A stretch of 10,075 bases of DNA from a virus (Duplodnaviria > Heunggongvirae > Uroviricota > Caudoviricetes): positions 1-10,075 of IMG/VR virus record IMGVR_UViG_2654587588_000010. One strand, given 5' to 3'. A program made the position numbers and the translations under genes. This document shows positions 1-10,075 of this stretch, piece after piece (position 1 is the stretch's first letter; the number at the start of each line of letters is the position of its first letter). Under the pieces are notes generated by a model. The model made no database searches, was not told where the DNA came from, and saw only the letters and a list, made by a program, of their open reading frames with translations.

Positions 1-2085
<2,085 letters not shown>

Positions 2086-2098
2086 CCATCAACGAAAA

Positions 2099-2118
2099 AG
2101 CCCACATCTGTGGGCTTT
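2099..2118 (+). terminator. Possible weak intrinsic terminator after the autotransporter gene
   Basis: Seen: 8-bp stem AGCCCACA / TGTGGGCT with a 3-nt loop, 14 nt after the stop codon, followed by only TTT. The short T-run makes this weak. Confidence 0.3.
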
Positions 2119-2401
2119 CATGTCACCAGGAGCCGCGGCTCCTTTGCGTATCCTTTTATGTCTCTTCACCGTCTGGTCGGCGTCCTGCTGAGACTTCTAA
2201 CTTCCTGTTTTTATTGGTGTTGTCCTTATACCGTCCAATCATGATTGGGCTGGCGGAGTTTGAATAAATATTGTATTGCTTTGATTTTTTAATGATTTTG
2301 TTTAATTCAGCTTTTGTGTGTATACCTAATCGTATACCAATGGCTGTAAGTTAATGTGAAATGAAAGCGCATTTTTACTTGGATTGATGCTATATCGTAC
2401 A

Positions 2402-2704
2402 GGAAAAAATTTTTTTTCGGAAGAACTGTTCACACTGTTCACCATTTGGTTTTCTCCTTTTATTTCAGCATGATAGGTGGTGAATAATGGGTGAAGGGTG
2501 AACATTCGATTCTTCACCTCCGGCATTCTGCCGGTGTGACTCATACCGGTGATTAATCCCCCGTACTGAAATCACACAGGGAGAAAAAAGTTTTTTTTTG
2601 ATTTGATTGTTCACACTGTTCACCTTTCATTTTTCTCTTTTAATTTCAGTATGATAACGGGTGAATACACGGTGAAGGGTGAACAGTGGATTGTTCACCT
2701 TCGG
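2402..2704. repeat. crr-like cis replication region: two direct repeats of about 122 bp at a 180-bp period, each carrying TGTTCAC-type iterons
   Basis: Seen: 2402-2522 and 2582-2704 align nearly base for base, each with TGTTCACACTGTTCACC, GGTGAA, GGTGAAGGGTGAAC and TTCACC motifs. Established (from memory): P4 crr is two 120-bp direct repeats with type I iterons bound by alpha, next to the 3' end of the alpha gene. Confidence 0.6.
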
Positions 2705-2717
2705 GGAATTCAGGGAT

Positions 2718-2742
2718 AAAAAAAGACCGGCAGATGCCGGTC
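2718..2742 (-). terminator. Rho-independent terminator of the leftward alpha operon
   Basis: Seen: minus-strand hairpin GACCGGCATCTGCCGGTC (plus 2725-2742) followed immediately by a 7-nt U-run (plus 2718-2724), 17 nt after the alpha stop codon at 2759-2761. Confidence 0.5.
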
Positions 2743-2758
2743 AGATGAGTCATGAGGG

Positions 2759-5092
2759 TCAGGTTGTTGCAGGGTCGTCACATTTTGGCAGCCAGTCGCC
2801 GTAGCTTTCCTCTTTCAGCGTCAGGTTGGTCTGTATCCCCTGTTTGGTATGGCGCTTCTCGTAATTCAGTCCGTATTCCTTCAGCATCACCGGCAGCCCC
2901 AGCCCGAACATTTTCAGACTGAGTACATTCCGGTAGCCGTTTGCCTCCATGTAGGCCAGATAGGCGTGATAGAGGTATTTACGGTAATTACGCGGGATGA
3001 TACTGGCGTTCCCCATATACATGCCGCTGGTCTGCGGCAGGGTTTCCAGATAGCCGATAAAATCAAACGTCGGGTCGGCATCCCGTTTGATGTTCAGCGC
3101 CTCGTCTGAGTTCTGCTGGGACTGAAGCAGTGACCGGGCGAGCATCGGGTCGCTGAACTTCTGCATCAGGTGACGCACGATGACCGCCAGCTCGCGGGTG
3201 ATTTTGTCCTTAAGCTGCGGGTCGCGCTCCTGCGGGGCTATCTGTTCCGGGAAGTGAATAATCACCCGCCGGCGTGACACGCCGCCGCTGCGGTCGGTGA
3301 AGCGCATCGGGTTATTGTTCACGGCCAGAATCACCGCCGGGATGTGCGTGGAGTACGCATCCCGGTATTTCGGGTCAACGGACACCGCATCGCCGCCGGT
3401 GATGGCCTTGAGTCCGGCACCGTCGCCGCTCCATTTTTCCTGGTCCGGCAGGCGTATCAGTGAGAAGCCAGTTAACGCGGCACGTTCACGCGGGGATTCC
3501 AGCGTCTCGATGGTGGCCGACGTGGCGTTATCCTCCCCGGCCAGCAGGGTGGCGATTTCGGCCATGATACTTTTGCCGCTGCCGCCGGGACCGGTCACCT
3601 CCAGAAAGAGCTGCCAGTCGTAGCGGTTTGCCAGCACCATAAACAGTGCGGCCAGAATCACGTCGCGTTTTTCCGCACGACCACCGGCGGCACGGTCAAG
3701 CCAGCGCCAGAACGCGGGAGCGTGGGTTTCCAGCGTTTCCCCTTCCACCGGCGGGGTGAAATCCACATCGCACAGGGTACGCATCCAGTGTGACGGACTG
3801 TGCGGGTGGAACGTGCCGTTCTGCGTGTCGGGCACGCCGTTACGAAAGCCAATCAGGCGGCGGGAGGGGGCTTCCTGCTGCGGAATAATCAGCTTCAGGG
3901 TGTCCACCACGGAGGCCACCTTCCCGGAGGAGAACGGCGCACGCAGACGCTGAAACAGCCCGGCCACATCCCGGGCAAAGTCCTGTGGCGGCAGCACCTT
4001 CCAGACACCATTTTCATAACGGGACAGAAGCTGGCCGTTGGCATCGACCGCGAGCGCCTCGCCGTAATGCTCATAGATACGCATGGCCTTTTCGCTGGTA
4101 CTCATGGCGGAAAACTCCGCTTCACTCATGGTGTCGAACGGGCTTTCAGCCGGTGGCCGGATGGCATCGTAAATGGCCTTACGGGTGGCCTCCCCGCCGT
4201 ACTGCGTGAAGGCATCATTCCAGTCACCGAAGACCGGTGGCAGGGCAACAACACCTTCACACGCATCTGCGGCTGCGGCGGCTTTTTTCTGGCCGTCACC
4301 GCTGAGGTCACGGTCAGCAGCAAGGACAATCTGACAGGCCGGATGCTTCTGCCGGGCAAGGCTGGCCAGAGAAAGGAGGTTCACGGAAGAAAGCGCCACC
4401 ATCACCGTTTCACCGGTCAGGTGATGTACGGTAAGTGCGGTCGCGTATCCCTCCGCTATCCACAGACGTTTTCCGGCCTGATTCTGTCCTTCAAGGGTGT
4501 GACAGGTGCCCCTGACCTGTCCGCCTTTCAGGGTGCGCTTACGGCCGTCAGCACTGATTAACTGAAGGTTAACCAGTTCGCCGCTGTCGTCATACAGTGG
4601 CACCACAAGGTCACCGGCGCGCCAGCTCACGCCACCGGCTCTGTGTGTGCCGGTCAGCATCCGGCATTCCCGGCCGGGAAAGCCCTTGCGGGTCAGGTAG
4701 GCGTTACCGGTTCCGGGACGGGTTTTCGCTATCAGGGTTTGTGCCAGTGCGGCGGCGTTCTTCCGGGCAGCGTCTGTTTCAGCACCGGCGGCAGCCGTCA
4801 CTGCCGGGTCAGCCGGGGGCAGGCTGCCGGTCACGGCAGCCACCTTTGCGGCCGCGTCGGACGGGGAGACACCAAACACCTTTTCAACCAGTTTCAGGCC
4901 GTCACCGGCACCACACTGATTGCAGTACCAGGTGCCGCGCCCCTCCCTGTCATCAAAACGGAAGCGGTCACTCCCGCCACAGACCGGACAGGGCTGATGA
5001 CGGTTCTTCAGCACCTGAATCCCCAGCGCCGGGAGAATACGCGGCCAGTGGCCGAGCGCATGGCTGACGGTGGCGGTTACGTTCATTTTCAT
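2759..5092 (-). CDS. alpha: P4 alpha-type primase-helicase replication protein (777 aa)
   Basis: Seen: N-terminal zinc-binding motif CPVCGGSDRF...WYCNQCG; Walker A GPGGSGKS in the central NTPase domain; RBS AAGGAGA 8 nt before ATG at 5092. Established: P4 alpha is a 777-aa primase, helicase and origin-binding protein. Lies next to the crr repeats as in P4. Confidence 0.9.
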   Translation of the reverse strand: MKMNVTATVSHALGHWPRILPALGIQVLKNRHQPCPVCGGSDRFRFDDREGRGTWYCNQCGAGDGLKLVEKVFGVSPSDAAAKVAAVTGSLPPADPAVTAAAGAETDAARKNAAALAQTLIAKTRPGTGNAYLTRKGFPGRECRMLTGTHRAGGVSWRAGDLVVPLYDDSGELVNLQLISADGRKRTLKGGQVRGTCHTLEGQNQAGKRLWIAEGYATALTVHHLTGETVMVALSSVNLLSLASLARQKHPACQIVLAADRDLSGDGQKKAAAAADACEGVVALPPVFGDWNDAFTQYGGEATRKAIYDAIRPPAESPFDTMSEAEFSAMSTSEKAMRIYEHYGEALAVDANGQLLSRYENGVWKVLPPQDFARDVAGLFQRLRAPFSSGKVASVVDTLKLIIPQQEAPSRRLIGFRNGVPDTQNGTFHPHSPSHWMRTLCDVDFTPPVEGETLETHAPAFWRWLDRAAGGRAEKRDVILAALFMVLANRYDWQLFLEVTGPGGSGKSIMAEIATLLAGEDNATSATIETLESPRERAALTGFSLIRLPDQEKWSGDGAGLKAITGGDAVSVDPKYRDAYSTHIPAVILAVNNNPMRFTDRSGGVSRRRVIIHFPEQIAPQERDPQLKDKITRELAVIVRHLMQKFSDPMLARSLLQSQQNSDEALNIKRDADPTFDFIGYLETLPQTSGMYMGNASIIPRNYRKYLYHAYLAYMEANGYRNVLSLKMFGLGLPVMLKEYGLNYEKRHTKQGIQTNLTLKEESYGDWLPKCDDPATT

Positions 5093-5106
5093 GGTGTTGT
5101 TCTCCT

Positions 5107-5427
5107 TCAGTGCAGTACCGGCGCTTTTATGTGACGGGCACAGAGTTCATCCATCACAACCAGCCCGAGAAAGGACAGCGACGGCGCGGCCTTCAGGGGG
5201 CCGGATTCCATTAAATCTTCCAGCAGGGCACAGGCTATCTGACGCCCTTTTTCCTCACCGTGCTGGCGCAGATAAAAGCCCTCCAGCTCAGCGGCGATGG
5301 CCGCCTCCAGTGATTCAAGGGTGAGATGCGGGTAGCGGTGCTGACGTTCGCACACGGTCAGCCAGGCACAGGCGACAGCGCGACGGTAAAGGGCAGCGCG
5401 TAAGACGGGCGGTAAGGGTGTTTTCAT
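5107..5427 (-). CDS. Small protein of the P4 left operon (106 aa), function unknown
   Basis: Seen: RBS GGGAGG 7 nt before ATG at 5427; stop TGA at 5107-5109 sits 14 nt before the alpha start, inside the alpha RBS region. Immediately upstream of alpha and co-oriented. Confidence 0.55.
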
Positions 5428-5562
5428 TTGTTTTCCTCCCTGTGACAGATGACTGCATTCCGTGCCGGTTGCATTAACTGATAAGGCATATCTGCGTCTC
5501 CTGAAGACGTGCGTATCCCTGCGCGAATACGCACATTTAATTTTTCGGGTGTCGTTTTTTAA

Positions 5563-6018
5563 TTACAGATAATTGCGGTAACTGTTATCCGGGGTGATTT
5601 CCGGGTCAGGCTCCGTGCGGGGAATTTCCCGCCATTCCCGCGCCACCGGTGCCGCCCGGCTGACCGGAACAGGGTCCTGCGGGTAAATATCCAGATATTT
5701 CTCCCGCCATTTCTGTAATTCCGGGTCTCCGGCCATTTCTTTCAGTACCGCATGCCGGTTTACGGGGCTGCGTCTGAACAGGTCAGGACGGTCACAGGTA
5801 AATTTCCGCAGAAAACGCCCCAGCGGGATATCTGTGGTGCGCCCGTCAGCGAGGATACGCACAAGGATACTGAATTTACGGCGGTACGGGTTCCAGACAA
5901 TGTCCGGGCAGCGGTACGGCATTTCCCACGGAATACCGTCTTCCAGAATGCCAACCACGGCCACATCGGGAAAACCGGCAGAACGGTAAATCTCACCGGG
6001 CTGGGGAAAATCAAACAT
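5563..6018 (-). CDS. P4 orf151-like protein (151 aa), function unknown
   Basis: Seen: RBS GGGGAGA before ATG at 6018; the start overlaps the stop of the upstream ORF (ATGTTTGA), indicating translational coupling. Established (from memory): P4 has a 151-codon ORF between epsilon and alpha. Confidence 0.6.
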   Translation of the reverse strand: MFDFPQPGEIYRSAGFPDVAVVGILEDGIPWEMPYRCPDIVWNPYRRKFSILVRILADGRTTDIPLGRFLRKFTCDRPDLFRRSPVNRHAVLKEMAGDPELQKWREKYLDIYPQDPVPVSRAAPVAREWREIPRTEPDPEITPDNSYRNYL

Positions 6019-6298
6019 GCGTCTTGTCTCCCCGGTCTTTCTGCTGGGCGAGAAAATCGCGGCACAGGCCTTTGGCTTTCAGCTCATTCAGCACAAAATC
6101 AATATCTTCATTCAGGTAGCTGAAAATATGCGGAATGTAGAGCTGATGCAGGCCGGAGAGTTCACGGTGAATCAAATCACCCCCAACAAACTGGGATACG
6201 GCGCTGGCGCGGTTGAGCTTATGGTAAGCCTCAATGCTGAGGTGTTCACGGGCGTCATGACGCGCTGAGACGGTCTGAGGGGCTTTTTTATTACGCAC
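6011..6298 (-). CDS. epsilon: Probable P4 epsilon-type derepression protein (95 aa)
   Basis: Assigned from position (directly upstream of orf151 in the left operon) and size only; no motif recognised. GTG start at 6298 overlaps the stop of the eta-like ORF (GTGCGTAA). Confidence 0.5.
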
Positions 6299-6488
6299 GG
6301 GACACCTCCATCACCGGCAGACGGGCAGCAAGGGAGAGCACATAGTCACGGACAAGGGAACGGCGGGCACTGCGTTCATCACCGGCGACGGTGCGAAGCA
6401 TGCAGATACGGGGGTGACGGTCTGCGCGACGGACAGCCGCAAACACAAAGACAAATTCAGGGTGTGAGGGGGTAAGGGTTGTAGCCAT
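6291..6488 (-). CDS. Small ORF (65 aa) at the position of P4 eta
   Basis: Seen: internal ATG at 6488 of the long 6291-6890 ORF, preceded by AGGAGG (plus 6497-6502) that overlaps the seqC-like element; stop overlaps the epsilon start. Upstream part of the long ORF rejected. Confidence 0.4.
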
Positions 6489-6499
6489 GATGGCAGCCT

Positions 6500-6540
6500 C
6501 CTTGAAGTAACAGTTACAGCTACCACTGGAGTTCCTACGC
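6500..6540 (-). promoter_or_regulatory. seqC-like antisense target: two 8-nt blocks complementary to seqB
   Basis: Seen: plus-strand CCTTGAAG (6500-6507) and GTTCCTAC (6531-6538) are reverse complements of CTTCAAGG and GTAGGAA in 6565-6586. Established: in P4, CI RNA pairs with seqA and seqC on nascent leftward transcripts to terminate transcription and block translation. Confidence 0.5.
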
Positions 6541-6545
6541 TCATG

Positions 6546-6625
6546 GGTGGTAGCCCGGACGGGGGTAGGAATACCGGCCTTCAAGGAAACCGGCCAGCCC
6601 GAAGGCTGCCCCGCCCGGACCACCA
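6546..6625 (-). ncRNA. cI: CI-type immunity RNA candidate carrying seqB; ends approximate
   Basis: Seen: GC-rich segment with long-range pairing (GGTGGT 6546-6551 with ACCACC 6619-6624; GGGCGGGG with CCCCGUCC allowing one G-U) enclosing a CAGCC-UUCG-GGCUG tetraloop hairpin and the seqB blocks at 6565-6586. Boundaries not determinable from sequence alone. Confidence 0.45.
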
Positions 6626-6721
6626 TTATCTGACAGAGGCTACGGTTTAAAAACCACAGCCAGAAAAACAGGTGTGCCGAAGCAACGACGTAAAAAAAGA
6701 CGCATGGCGCGTCATATGTCG

Positions 6722-6745
6722 CCTTGAAGTAACTCGGGTTCCTAC
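6722..6745 (-). promoter_or_regulatory. seqA-like antisense target in the early leader
   Basis: Seen: CCTTGAAG (6722-6729) and GTTCCTAC (6738-6745), the same two blocks as seqC, complementary to seqB. Confidence 0.5.
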
Positions 6746-6776
6746 GCCCGGCTGCCGATTTTGCGGCAGCGGAAAA

Positions 6777-6806
6777 ACTATATCCGCAAATGCCGGAAAA
6801 AGGCAA
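6777..6806 (-). promoter_or_regulatory. Candidate early leftward promoter (PLE-like)
   Basis: Seen on minus strand: -35 TTGCCT (plus 6801-6806), 18-nt spacer, -10 TATAGT (plus 6777-6782); predicted start near 6770, about 25 nt upstream of seqA and about 395 bp downstream of the predicted PLL start. Established (from memory): P4 PLE lies about 400 bp downstream of PLL. Confidence 0.4.
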
Positions 6807-6841
6807 GCCAGAAAAAGGGAGTTTTTGCAGAACAGGCATCA

Positions 6842-7108
6842 TCATGCGTCGTACCCCCGTTTGCGTCCGGCAATGCGCCCGGCCATCCATGCGGTGACTT
6901 CAGAGTGCAGCCAGGCCACATTTTTACCGCCAAGACTCACCTGCGGCGGAAATTCCCCCTTACGGATGAGTTCGTAGATGGTCGAGCGTGACAGGCCGCA
7001 CAGGTGCATCACTTCCGGCAGACGTAAAAAACGCTCCTGCGTGATGTCCGGCAGCGGCATCAGTGGCGTCACAGGGGCGGGAGACGGGGAAGAAAAAACA
7101 GCTTGCAT
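6842..7108 (-). CDS. vis: Vis / AlpA-family DNA-binding regulator (88 aa)
   Basis: Seen: helix-turn-helix segment [30 protein letters not shown] typical of the AlpA family; RBS GAGG before ATG at 7108; sits between the late-promoter region and the immunity module as P4 vis (orf88) does. Confidence 0.85.
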
Positions 7109-7210
7109 CGGGCTACCTCGTTAATGTCCATACAGCACCGGATAAGTCCGTCCGGCTTCGGGTAGCGCTTTATTTTGTGAATATTTTCAGCAGACGCAAC
7201 AGGGGGGATT

Positions 7211-7228
7211 TGTTCCGGCAGTCTTACA
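7211..7228 (-). promoter_or_regulatory. Ogr/Delta-type activator site (TGT-N12-ACA) of a leftward late promoter (PLL-like)
   Basis: Seen: TGTTCCGGCAGTCTTACA. Established: P2/P4 late promoters carry TGT-N12-ACA centred near -55; that places the start near 7165, 57 nt upstream of vis. Confidence 0.4.
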
Positions 7229-7386
7229 ATGGCTGTGTATTTTTTGTACATCAGCGCCAGATAGCTTTAAAACGCTCTGGAAGGAGCTGGAAAAAATTAT
7301 AGTGAAATACAAATTGTTTTTTCTTATTTATTTCAGTGAATTAATAAAAATAAAAAGTAATAAACAGCACAAAAAGCCCATCAACG

Positions 7387-7491
7387 GGTGAACAGTGGTG
7401 AACAGACGGTGAACAGTCATTACTGCGATTGTTCACCCTTTAAATTACTGTATTACTTATCTTTTTTCTTATGGTGAACAGAGGTGAACAG
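7387..7491. repeat. Origin-of-replication iteron cluster (six GGTGAACAG / TGTTCACC copies) in an AT-rich intergenic region
   Basis: Seen: GGTGAACAG at 7387-7395, 7397-7405, 7408-7416, 7473-7481 and 7483-7491, plus inverted TGTTCACC at 7430-7437, flanked by AT-rich DNA (7290-7380, 7440-7510). Same motif as in the crr repeats. Established (from memory): P4 ori consists of alpha-bound type I iterons. Confidence 0.6.
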
Positions 7492-7569
7492 TAAAATATA
7501 AAAAAACAAACAGTAAGCCGGTTTTTCCTGCGACCTTTTCCTGGCTTGCCGGTCTGAGGATGAGTCTCC

Positions 7570-7636
7570 TGTGTCAGGGCTGGCACATCTGCAATGCGTC
7601 GTGTTGTTGTCCGGTGTACGTCACAATTTTCTTAAC
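7570..7636 (+). promoter_or_regulatory. Psid-like late promoter with Ogr/Delta-type activator site
   Basis: Seen: TGT-N12-ACA at 7570-7587 (TGTGTCAGGGCTGGCACA); weak -10-like CACAAT near 7622-7627; RBS GAGGAG at 7647-7652; sid ATG at 7660. Confidence 0.45.
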
Positions 7637-7659
7637 CTGAAGTGACGAGGAGCCGGAAA

Positions 7660-8394
7660 ATGTCTGACAACACCATCCCTGAATATCTGCAACCCGCGCT
7701 GGCACAACTGGAAAAGGCCAGAGCCGCCCACCTTGAGAACGCCCGCCTGATGGATGAGACCGTCACGGCCATTGAACGGGCAGAGCAGGAAAAAAATGCG
7801 CTGGCGCAGGCCGACGGAAACGACGCTGACGACTGGCGCACGGCCTTTCGTGCAGCCGGTGGTGTCCTGAGCGACGAGCTGAAACAGCGCCACATTGAGC
7901 GCGTGGCACGCCGGGAGCTGGTACAGGAATATGACAATCTGGCCGTGGTGCTGAATTTCGAACGTGAACGCCTGAAAGGGGCGTGTGACAGCACGGCCAC
8001 CGCCTACCGGAAGGCACATCATCACCTGCTGAGTCTGTATGCAGAGCATGAGCTGGAACACGCCCTGAATGAAACCTGTGAGGCGCTTGTCCGGGCAATG
8101 CATCTGAGCATTCTGGTACAGGAAAATCCGCTCGCCAACACCACCGGGCATCAGGGCTACGTCGCACCCGATAAAGCTGTCATGCAGCAGGTGAAATCAT
8201 CGCTGGAACAGAAAATAAAACAGATGCAAATCAGCCTCACCGGCGAGCCGGTTCTCCGGCTGACCGGACTGTCAGCGGCAACACTCCCGCACATGGATTA
8301 TGAGGTGGCAGGCACACCGGCACAGCGCAAGGTGTGGCAGGACAAAATAGACCAGCAGGGAGCAGTGCTTAAGGCCAGAGGACTGCTGTCATGA
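7660..8394 (+). CDS. sid: Sid capsid size-determination (external scaffold) protein, 244 aa
   Basis: Seen: ATG at 7660 with RBS GAGGAG 7 nt upstream is preferred over the GTG at 7642 in the ORF track; stop overlaps the delta start (ATGA). Established: P4 late operon is sid-delta-psu and Sid is 244 aa (from memory). Confidence 0.85.
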   Translation: MSDNTIPEYLQPALAQLEKARAAHLENARLMDETVTAIERAEQEKNALAQADGNDADDWRTAFRAAGGVLSDELKQRHIERVARRELVQEYDNLAVVLNFERERLKGACDSTATAYRKAHHHLLSLYAEHELEHALNETCEALVRAMHLSILVQENPLANTTGHQGYVAPDKAVMQQVKSSLEQKIKQMQISLTGEPVLRLTGLSAATLPHMDYEVAGTPAQRKVWQDKIDQQGAVLKARGLLS

Positions 8395-8891
8395 TTTACT
8401 GCCCGTCGTGTGGACATGTTGCTCACACCCGCCGCGCACATTTCATGGACGATGGCACCAAGATAATGATTGCACAGTGCCGGAATATTTATTGCTCTGC
8501 GACATTTGAAGCGAGTGAAAGCTTTTTCTCTGACAGTAAAGATTCAGGAATGGAATACATTTCAGGCAAACAGAGATACCGCGATTCACTGACGTCAGCC
8601 TCCGGTAGCATGAAACGCCCGAAAAGAATGCTTGTTACCGGATATTGTTGTCGGAGATGTAAAGGCCTTGCACTGTCAAGAACATCGCGGCGTCTGTCTC
8701 AGGAAGTCACCGAGCGTTTTTATGTGTGCACGGATCCGGGCTGTGGTCTGGTGTTTAAAACGCTTCAGACCATCAACCGCTTCATTGTCCGCCCGGTCAC
8801 GCCGGACGAACTGGCAGAAAGCCTGCATGAAAAACAGGAACTGCCGCCAGTACGCTTAAAAACACAATCATATTCGCTGCGTCTGGAATGA
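8391..8891 (+). CDS. delta: Delta late-gene transcriptional activator: two tandem Ogr-like zinc-finger modules (166 aa)
   Basis: Seen: N-terminal module MIYCPSCGHVAHTRRAHF...CRNIYCSATF and a second C-x2-C...C-x4-C module CCRRCKGLA...CTDPGCGLVF. Established: P4 Delta is 166 aa and resembles a covalent dimer of P2 Ogr. Confidence 0.9.
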   Translation: MIYCPSCGHVAHTRRAHFMDDGTKIMIAQCRNIYCSATFEASESFFSDSKDSGMEYISGKQRYRDSLTSASGSMKRPKRMLVTGYCCRRCKGLALSRTSRRLSQEVTERFYVCTDPGCGLVFKTLQTINRFIVRPVTPDELAESLHEKQELPPVRLKTQSYSLRLE

Positions 8892-8964
8892 GGGCTGCCG
8901 GTTAACACCGGCCGTCGCCGCACACCGTATTTTTATTCTTCAGCATGATGAGAAAGATATAACG

Positions 8965-9207
8965 ATGGAAAGCACAGCCTTACAGCAGGCCTTTGACACC
9001 TGTCAGAATAACAAAGCAGCATGGCTGCAACGCAAAAATGAGCTGGCTGCGGCCGAACAGGAATATCTGCGGCTTCTGTCAGGAGAAGGCAGAAACGTCA
9101 GTCGCCTGGACGAATTACGCAATATTATCGAAGTCAGAAAATGGCAGGTGAATCAGGCTGAACCGCCCCGGGAATCCTGGAGACTAAACTCCCTGAGAAA
9201 GAGGTAA
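8965..9207 (+). pseudogene. psu: psu (polarity suppression / capsid decoration) truncated by IS insertion
   Basis: Seen: ORF starts MESTALQQAFDTCQNNKAAW... and switches at about codon 65 (near 9159) into IS-derived sequence, ending after 15 more codons at TAA 9205-9207. Established (from memory): P4 Psu is about 190 aa with this N-terminus. Confidence 0.7.
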
Positions 9208-9212
9208 ACAGG

Positions 9213-9539
9213 ATGACTAAAAATACACGTTTTTCCCCCGAGGTCCGTCAACGGGCAGTTCGTATGGTTCTGGAAAGTCAGGATGAATATGACTCACAGT
9301 GGGCGGCAATTTGTTCCATTGCCCCAAAGATTGGCTGTACGCCGGAGACTCTGCGTGTCTGGGTTCGCCAGCATGAGCGGGATACCGGGAGCGGTGATGG
9401 CGGACTCACCACCGCTGAACGTCAGCGTCTGAAAGAGCTGGAACGTGAAAATCGTGAACTGCGCCGCAGTAACGATATCCTTCGCCAGGCTTCCGCTTAT
9501 TTTGCGAAGGCGGAGTTCGACCGCCTCTGGAAAAAATAA
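9213..9539 (+). CDS. IS3-family transposase OrfA (108 aa, helix-turn-helix plus leucine zipper)
   Basis: Seen: [22 protein letters not shown]...[28 protein letters not shown], matching IS629-group OrfA as recalled; stop TAA at 9537-9539 overlaps the orfB ATG. Confidence 0.9.
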
Positions 9540-10075
9540 TGCCACTGCTGGATAAGCTGCGTGAGCAGTACGGGGTCGGACCGCTATGCAGCGAACTGCA
9601 TATTGCCCCGTCAACGTATTACCACTGTCAGCAACAGCGACATCATCCTGATAAACGCAGTGCCCGTGCGCAGCGCGATGACTGGCTGAAGAAAGAGATA
9701 CAGCGCGTATACGATGAAAATCATCAGGTATACGGTGTGCGTAAAGTCTGGCGCCAGTTGTTACGCGAAGGTATCAGGGTGGCCAGATGTACAGTGGCGC
9801 GCCTCATGGCGGTTATGGGACTTGCCGGTGTTCTCCGGGGTAAAAAGGTCCGTACGACCATCAGCCGGAAAGCCGTTTCCGCATGCGACCGCGTAAACCG
9901 TCAGTTCGTGGCAGAACGTCCAGACCAGTTGTGGGTGGCTGATTTTACCTGGGTAAGCACATGGCAGGGCTTCGTTTATGTGGCGTTCATCATTGATGTG
10001 TTCGCCGGATACATCGTGGGATGGCAGGTCTCATCATCCATGGAAACAACATTCGTGCTGGATGCACTGGAGCAG
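9539..10075 (+). CDS. IS3-family transposase OrfB (DDE integrase domain), 3'-partial at the window edge
   Basis: Seen: frame open from ATG 9539 to the window end (179 codons): [29 protein letters not shown]...QLWVADFTWVSTWQGFVYVAFIIDVFAGYIVGW. Missing from the ORF track because no stop codon is reached. Confidence 0.85.
   Translation, partial: MPLLDKLREQYGVGPLCSELHIAPSTYYHCQQQRHHPDKRSARAQRDDWLKKEIQRVYDENHQVYGVRKVWRQLLREGIRVARCTVARLMAVMGLAGVLRGKKVRTTISRKAVSACDRVNRQFVAERPDQLWVADFTWVSTWQGFVYVAFIIDVFAGYIVGWQVSSSMETTFVLDALEQ

Follow-up and report, generated by a model that had tools for sequence, protein, structure and literature searches.

Replication of the satellite phage P4 requires two sites in cis, the origin (ori) and a second region called crr. 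The initiator protein alpha is thought to bring crr and ori together; it unwinds and primes the DNA at ori, bidirectional theta replication is carried out by the host DNA polymerase III, and Cnr acts as a restraint. Alpha reportedly binds type I iterons at both ori and crr, and its binding to the P4 sites is said to have been described by Ziegelin and co-workers in 1993. The description of crr reportedly goes back to Flensburg and Calendar in 1987 (J Mol Biol) and to Ziegelin and co-workers in 1993 (EMBO J); the replication mechanism is reportedly due to the same authors (the Ziegelin group in 1993, 1995, and 1997) and to Briani and colleagues in 2001.

In the GenBank record of P4 (X51522 / NC_001609), crr is annotated as 'cis required region for replication'. 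It is represented by two features named 'crr 120bp direct repeat' (4291-4410 and 4471-4590), which include ten 'ori type 1 repeat' features. The record further lists 'talpha' at 4604-4628 and the alpha gene at 4636-6969. A preprint likewise describes crr as the 'cis required region for replication' and as 'essential for ... replication of DNA' (bioRxiv 10.64898/2026.03.30.715334).

Here, a 10,075-nt stretch of a Caudoviricetes record (IMG/VR record IMGVR_UViG_2654587588_000010, positions 1 to 10,075) was analysed, which is referred to as the window. We are highly confident that positions 2404-2704 represent crr, the cis replication region, in a satellite prophage of the P4 type, i.e. a non-coding array of ten iterons in two 120-bp repeats. 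The feature itself is already known: it is the described crr of P4 (GenBank X05623, X51522), recognised here and not discovered. Minor points that go beyond the existing annotation are a polymorphism between one and two units, the better preservation of the alpha-proximal unit, the colinearity of crr and ori, and the replacement of the 'ori type 2 repeats'.

Layout of the repeats and their position

A repeat search over the whole window returned one long family of direct repeats with two copies, at 2401-2523 and 2582-2704. The copies are 123 nt long, show 79% mutual identity, and have a start-to-start spacing of 181. For the unit bounds used throughout (Table 1), the register of the P4 annotation was followed. 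The region is AT-rich, with a GC content of 30-46% vs 53-64% in the flanking genes. It is located downstream of alpha and between this gene and the probable att, as is crr in P4. The repeats sit just beyond a terminator-like hairpin with a T-run on the minus strand (2725-2742), and 4683 bp separate them from the ori iteron cluster. A sequence-only reading of this DNA had described two 122-bp repeats at 2402-2704 with a 58-bp spacer, placed directly behind the terminator of the operon, at the alpha gene's far end, and 4.7 kb from an origin cluster, and agrees with these measurements. No Rfam RNA family matched in 2300-2760, nor did 2050-2850 yield a sigma-70-like promoter.

Table 1. Positions of crr and other annotated features in the window, with their counterparts in P4
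Feature	Position	Strand	Remarks
Probable distal att, imperfect copy of ssrA 3' end	2249-2265	.	window GCTGGCGGAGTTTGAA vs ssrA reverse complement GCTGGCGGGAGTTGAA
crr direct repeat 1, 120 bp, alpha-distal	2404-2523	.	aligns with P4 4291-4410 'crr 120bp direct repeat'; 95% identical to P4 DR1
Type I iteron variant TGTTCACA, unit 1	2427-2434	+	P4 'ori type 1 repeat' 4314-4321
Type I iteron TGTTCACC, unit 1	2436-2443	+	P4 4323-4330
Type I iteron variant TATTCACC, unit 1	2479-2486	-	P4 4366-4373
Type I iteron TGTTCACC, unit 1	2497-2504	-	P4 4384-4391
Type I iteron variant TCTTCACC, unit 1	2511-2518	+	P4 4398-4405
Inter-unit spacer, 61 bp	2524-2584	.	P4 4411-4470; poorly conserved in P4-like elements of other genera
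crr direct repeat 2, 120 bp, alpha-proximal	2585-2704	.	aligns with P4 4471-4590; 97% identical to P4 DR2
Type I iteron variant TGTTCACA, unit 2	2608-2615	+	P4 4494-4501
Type I iteron TGTTCACC, unit 2	2617-2624	+	P4 4503-4510
Type I iteron variant TATTCACC, unit 2	2660-2667	-	P4 4546-4553
Type I iteron TGTTCACC, unit 2	2678-2685	-	P4 4564-4571
Type I iteron TGTTCACC, unit 2	2692-2699	+	P4 4578-4585
t-alpha, intrinsic terminator of the alpha operon	2715-2742	-	hairpin GACCGGCATCTGCCGGTC then TTTTTTT; P4 'talpha' 4604-4628
alpha gene (primase, SF3 helicase, origin-binding protein), 777 aa	2759-5092	-	768/776 identical to P4 alpha
ORF106, homologue of P4 cnr (copy-number regulator)	5107-5427	-	position as P4 ORF106; DUF5375 match, E = 2.9e-63
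P4 immunity RNAs	6543-6783	-	C4 antisense RNA (P4 CI RNA) 6543-6630; isrK 6693-6770; a1/b1 target 6731-6783
Type I iterons of ori, cluster with six exact copies of TGTTCACC	7387-7490	.	same sequence as P4 9310-9413, which carries six annotated 'ori type 1 repeats'
IS3-family element, IS629/IS1203 type	9159-10075		left end TGAACCGCCCCGGG; ALIL pseudoknot 9494-9610

Identity with crr of phage P4

When the window was compared with phage records by blastn, positions 2404-2752 aligned with P4 4291-4638 at 94% identity (E = 1e-148), and the same identity was obtained for the region of the two repeats by itself (2404-2704 vs P4 4291-4590). On a larger scale, the window matches P4 4291-11081 at 97.3% over positions 2404-9158; the homology begins exactly at the outer edge of crr (2404 = P4 4291). 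P4 coordinates were transferred to the window with an offset of -1887, changing to -1886 after one extra T. By this transfer, all ten annotated iterons of P4 crr fell on window sites that had been found independently. Both the 94% identity with the annotated region and the coincidence of the ten iterons support the earlier proposal that the repeats are crr, a further site that acts in cis in the replication of a P4-like element.

Pairwise and four-way alignments showed that unit 1 of the window is closest to unit 1 of P4 (95%) and unit 2 to unit 2 of P4 (97%). The two units within one element are only ~80% alike, so that the duplication must be old and both copies have been kept.

Every feature that defines crr of P4 at the sequence level was found in window 2404-2704. 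The two loci have in common (i) two 120-bp direct repeats with a spacer of ~60 bp; (ii) five type I iterons per unit, identical in position and orientation; (iii) the placement between att and the alpha terminator, ~4.7 kb from ori; and (iv) a cognate alpha with an identical DNA-binding domain. They differ in (i) ~6% substitutions, most of which lie outside the iterons; (ii) the spacing of the units, 181 vs 180 in P4, due to one extra T in a T-run; (iii) the partner site, as the 'ori type 2 repeats' are not conserved in the window; and (iv) the integration module, the element lying at ssrA beside ypjA and having an att unlike the annotated attP core of P4. Because this core differs from the 3' end of ssrA, the integration modules of the two elements are different, and the conserved P4 core begins with crr.

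Iterons in crr and at the origin

The motif TGTTCACC occurs in 12 exact copies in the 10-kb window when both strands are considered, vs 0.38 expected, and this number was reached in none of 200 dinucleotide-preserving shuffles. Five of the exact copies fall into the repeats, six into 7387-7490, and a single stray copy lies in ypjA. The repeats and the cluster reported before at 7387-7491 thus indeed have a motif in common. Allowing up to one mismatch, ten sites were detected in the repeats, five per unit, with the same order and orientation in both units. They consist of the five exact copies and five variants with one mismatch, and both orientations are represented.

The right half of each crr unit (2475-2518 and 2656-2699) is colinear with the ori block 7382-7437, the order at both places being three minus-strand iterons followed by one plus-strand iteron. 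Local alignments of crr and ori reached scores of 30 and 40, compared with a mean of ~17 and a maximum of 25-28 for shuffled sequences. The ori core also resembles a crr unit in the overall order of its elements, i.e. an A/T run, TTTTCT..TTTATTTCAG, three minus-strand iterons, and one plus-strand iteron. Possibly, the ori core represents a third, diverged copy of a crr-type unit.

Some further differences and similarities were observed on the ori side. The three 10-bp 'ori type 2 repeats' of P4 (P4 9176-9205) are not conserved at window 7250-7297, where a patch of ~45 bp is replaced relative to P4 between nearly identical flanks. The replacement patch includes CTGGAAAAAATTAT, which resembles the start of a crr unit (CAGGAAAAAATTTT). 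Close by, the segment 7309-7336 (TTTTTTCTTATTTATTTCAG) is similar to the internal crr block TTTTCTCCTTTTATTTCAG.

Alpha protein and replication module

The cognate initiator alpha, with its origin-binding winged-helix domain, is encoded on the same element as crr. Its Pfam domains are Zn_Ribbon_Prim, Toprim_3, D5_N, DUF5906, and Pox_D5, and the solved origin-binding domain of P4 (PDB 1ka8) is matched by residues 671-770 at 100% identity. As both the iterons and the DNA-binding domain of alpha match those of P4, the sites and their reader are essentially those of P4. For the homologue of ORF106, the name cnr was adopted (PMC8628076). Taken together, the replication module is intact: the ori iterons are identical to those of P4, alpha is full-length (99% identity), and ORF106/cnr as well as the ten crr iterons are present. 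From this we infer that the crr copy in the window would still be functional.

Conservation in E. coli and other genera

The 301-bp crr was detected in 1126 of 5426 complete E. coli genomes. Every match was chromosomal, and coverage was at least 80% in 1069 of the 1126 genomes. For a wider survey, loci encoding alpha were scanned with one genome per species; 80 of the 184 loci, with alpha identities of 99-57%, were examined, and repeats were sought by aligning the 700 bp that follow the alpha stop codon with themselves (blastn). A repeat with two units of ~94-120 bp and a period of 166-181, starting ~52-69 bp after the alpha stop, was found in 16 loci. In three of these (including the loci L006 and L036), alpha is 97-99% identical to that of the window; the others belong to Enterobacter, Citrobacter, Klebsiella, Raoultella, Edwardsiella, Atlantibacter, Pseudescherichia, and Superficieibacter. 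Absence of the repeats from related P4-like elements had been named beforehand as evidence against a crr; the repeats were found to recur both in E. coli and in many other enterobacterial genera, so that this objection does not apply.

The occurrence in E. coli has a bearing on annotation, which is where the practical value of the present identification lies; as a discovery it carries little weight. RefSeq genomes leave the 300-bp crr block unannotated or place a spurious 'hypothetical protein' on it, although the block occurs in about a fifth of the complete E. coli genomes. Furthermore, crr marks the alpha-side end of P4-like satellites.

Conservation within crr was assessed by aligning the window, P4, and 15 two-unit loci, at an overall identity of ~69%. 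Of the crr columns, the 80 that belong to iterons were 97% conserved and 74% invariant, compared with 77% and 35%, respectively, for the other 221. Such preferential preservation of the iterons is a signature of selection on what would be protein-binding sites. The least conserved part of the alignment was the inter-unit spacer. Across genera, the alpha-proximal unit (DR2) is better conserved than DR1.

We also noted loci that carry one ~120-bp unit, whereas the window has the full two-unit form. In these loci (Citrobacter, Kluyvera, Raoultella, Mangrovibacter, and others), the unit is homologous to the alpha-proximal one, is located ~55-65 bp after the alpha stop, and includes the same iterons, with four to six copies of GTGAACA. 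The locus L004 (SFGJ01000059.1), whose alpha is 99% identical and whose ypjA-side junction is as in the window, contains one crr unit ~30-160 bp after the alpha stop that is DR1-like on the left and DR2-like on the right. Such a hybrid is what unequal recombination between the repeats, with loss of 181 bp, would be expected to leave. Given that single-unit variants exist in nature, two units are not obligatory.

The presence of crr was related to the divergence of alpha. At alpha identities of at least 81%, GTGAACA clusters usually occur on either side of the gene, one ~1650 bp upstream (ori) and the other downstream (crr). Below ~79% (loci L045-L082), most loci are without a TGTTCACC/GTGAACA cluster within 700 bp downstream of alpha, and several of them keep a cluster of 3-5 copies ~1.9-2.0 kb upstream of the gene. 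An exception among the distant loci is L083 from Serratia, with a 160-bp direct repeat of period 168. When 7-mers were counted in P4-like elements with an alpha identity below 75%, no convincing candidate for a different iteron emerged. As most elements with an alpha identity below ~79% are without the downstream cluster, crr may not be universal in the family.

Since relatives have two, one, or no recognisable units, crr could also be viewed as a variable, dosage-like enhancer of P4-type replication and not as a fixed requirement. The resemblance of the ori core to a third crr-type unit would suggest, in addition, that the two sites go back to a single ancestral iteron module that was duplicated. 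We regard this combined view of a variable enhancer and a common ancestral module as speculative and, on balance, rather doubtful.

Four of the loci with E. coli-type flanks and an alpha identity of 97-99% (L004, L005, L006, and L036) are labelled as metagenome-assembled genomes of Clostridiales, Ferruginibacter, 'bacterium', and Ruminococcus. Most likely, these labels reflect binning contamination by E. coli DNA.

Possible interplay of crr and ori

The mechanism outlined here rests on the GenBank annotation of P4, two engineering papers, and the P4 literature. Its starting points in the window are the sequence identity of the sites, their position, alpha and its DNA-binding domain, and the purifying selection on the iterons across genera. 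Alpha would bind the crr iterons and the six identical ori iterons through its C-terminal winged-helix domain. When bound at both sites, it would join crr and ori and loop out the intervening 4.7 kb, whereupon its helicase and primase activities would start bidirectional theta replication at ori. Cnr (ORF106) would damp replication. The crr copy in the window would accordingly be needed in cis together with ori.

The arrangement can be likened to that of the iteron plasmids R6K, P1, and F, in which a second cluster of initiator-binding sites, kilobases from the origin, acts in cis with the initiator at both places and is joined to the origin by initiator-mediated DNA looping. In R6K, the gamma-ori iterons activate the alpha and beta origins through the pi protein. 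The control iterons of P1 (incA) and F (incC) are negative copy-control loci, in contrast to crr, which is reported to be positively required. The likeness would be one of mode of action; these plasmids have no sequence or protein homology with P4-type crr, and the P4 initiator is a fusion of primase, SF3 helicase, and winged-helix domain, unlike the Rep/pi/RepA proteins of the iteron plasmids.

Alternative explanations

The proximity of the repeats to the probable distal att (~2249-2265), some 140 bp from the end of the prophage, could indicate arm-type integrase/excisionase sites belonging to an attachment site, the more so as the attP arm repeats of P4 lie within ~120-380 bp of crr. The annotated arm repeats of P4 are, however, separate 12-bp elements at 3915-4174, outside crr. 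Moreover, homology with P4 starts exactly at the crr edge, crr is kept unchanged across different integrases, and the repeat motif is identical to that of the ori iterons 4.7 kb away and tracks alpha, not int. Arm-type recombinase sites were rejected, as the repeat motif does not co-vary with the integrase/att module between P4 and the ssrA-integrated element; we consider them extremely improbable. Equally little credence is given to a small protein whose gene would have been duplicated internally. Open reading frames do overlap the repeats (72 aa at 2326-2544 and 52 aa at 2465-2623, both on the minus strand), and a 'hypothetical protein' is annotated under crr in RefSeq NC_001609 and in some E. 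coli genomes. Yet the 72-aa ORF crosses the boundary of P4 homology at 2404 and is thus not common to P4, the longest open frame switches strand and frame among 17 crr sequences, and it is the 8-bp iterons and the A/T runs, not a reading frame, that are chiefly conserved. With neither frame nor strand conserved in the 17 elements, a small ORF was rejected. Two direct repeats around a unique spacer of ~60 bp might finally recall a minimal CRISPR-like or other spacer-acquiring array. This is refuted by the homology with P4 crr, which fully explains the region, and by the repeats themselves: the array has no more than two copies, each of 120 bp and with 79% mutual identity, instead of short (~24-48 bp), near-identical repeats accompanied by cas. 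No cas genes were found in the window, nor was there an Rfam CRISPR match. The sequence-only reading, which had already dismissed a CRISPR array, was therefore right on this point.

A further alternative concerns the activity of crr and not its identity. The region could be a true crr by descent that has no present role in a defective and immobile prophage. An IS3-family element of the IS629/IS1203 type, starting at 9159, interrupts psu after about codon 64, so that crr may no longer be used, and the neighbouring ypjA is damaged as well. However, psu is not known to be a replication gene, and the ori iterons, alpha (99%), ORF106/cnr, and all ten crr iterons are intact. Such a decayed relic appears unlikely to us, if far less so than the arm-type sites or the small protein. 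Despite the damage elsewhere in the prophage, the complete set of ori, alpha, cnr, and crr suggests that its replication module could still be active.

Prophage context

In complete E. coli genomes of the same arrangement, the element is found between ypjA/EhaD and ssrA, with the integrase adjoining ssrA. The imperfect copy of the ssrA 3' end at ~2249-2265 therefore probably marks the end of the prophage near crr. In the locus L002, the annotated ssrA has only 177 nt, and a further integrase comes after it, suggesting that islands are arranged in tandem at ssrA. Related genomes carry an IS of the same type as that in psu at a different place, in sid.

The ypjA/EhaD autotransporter gene of the window (1-2085, plus strand) displays an internal deletion of ~1314 bp relative to full-length ypjA. 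At the deletion junction, window 1600-1612 joins positions 8515 and 9817 of the locus L003 with a 13-bp overlap. In addition, the reading frame shifts between ORF 270-1730 and ORF 1759-2085. The ypjA copy of the window is thus probably a pseudogene.

The immunity RNAs are overlapped by an ORF of 199 aa at 6291-6890 (Phage_ASH), the length of which differs from that of the 137-aa 'cI' ORF annotated in P4. In the region of this ORF, the alignment with P4 is split into two pieces.
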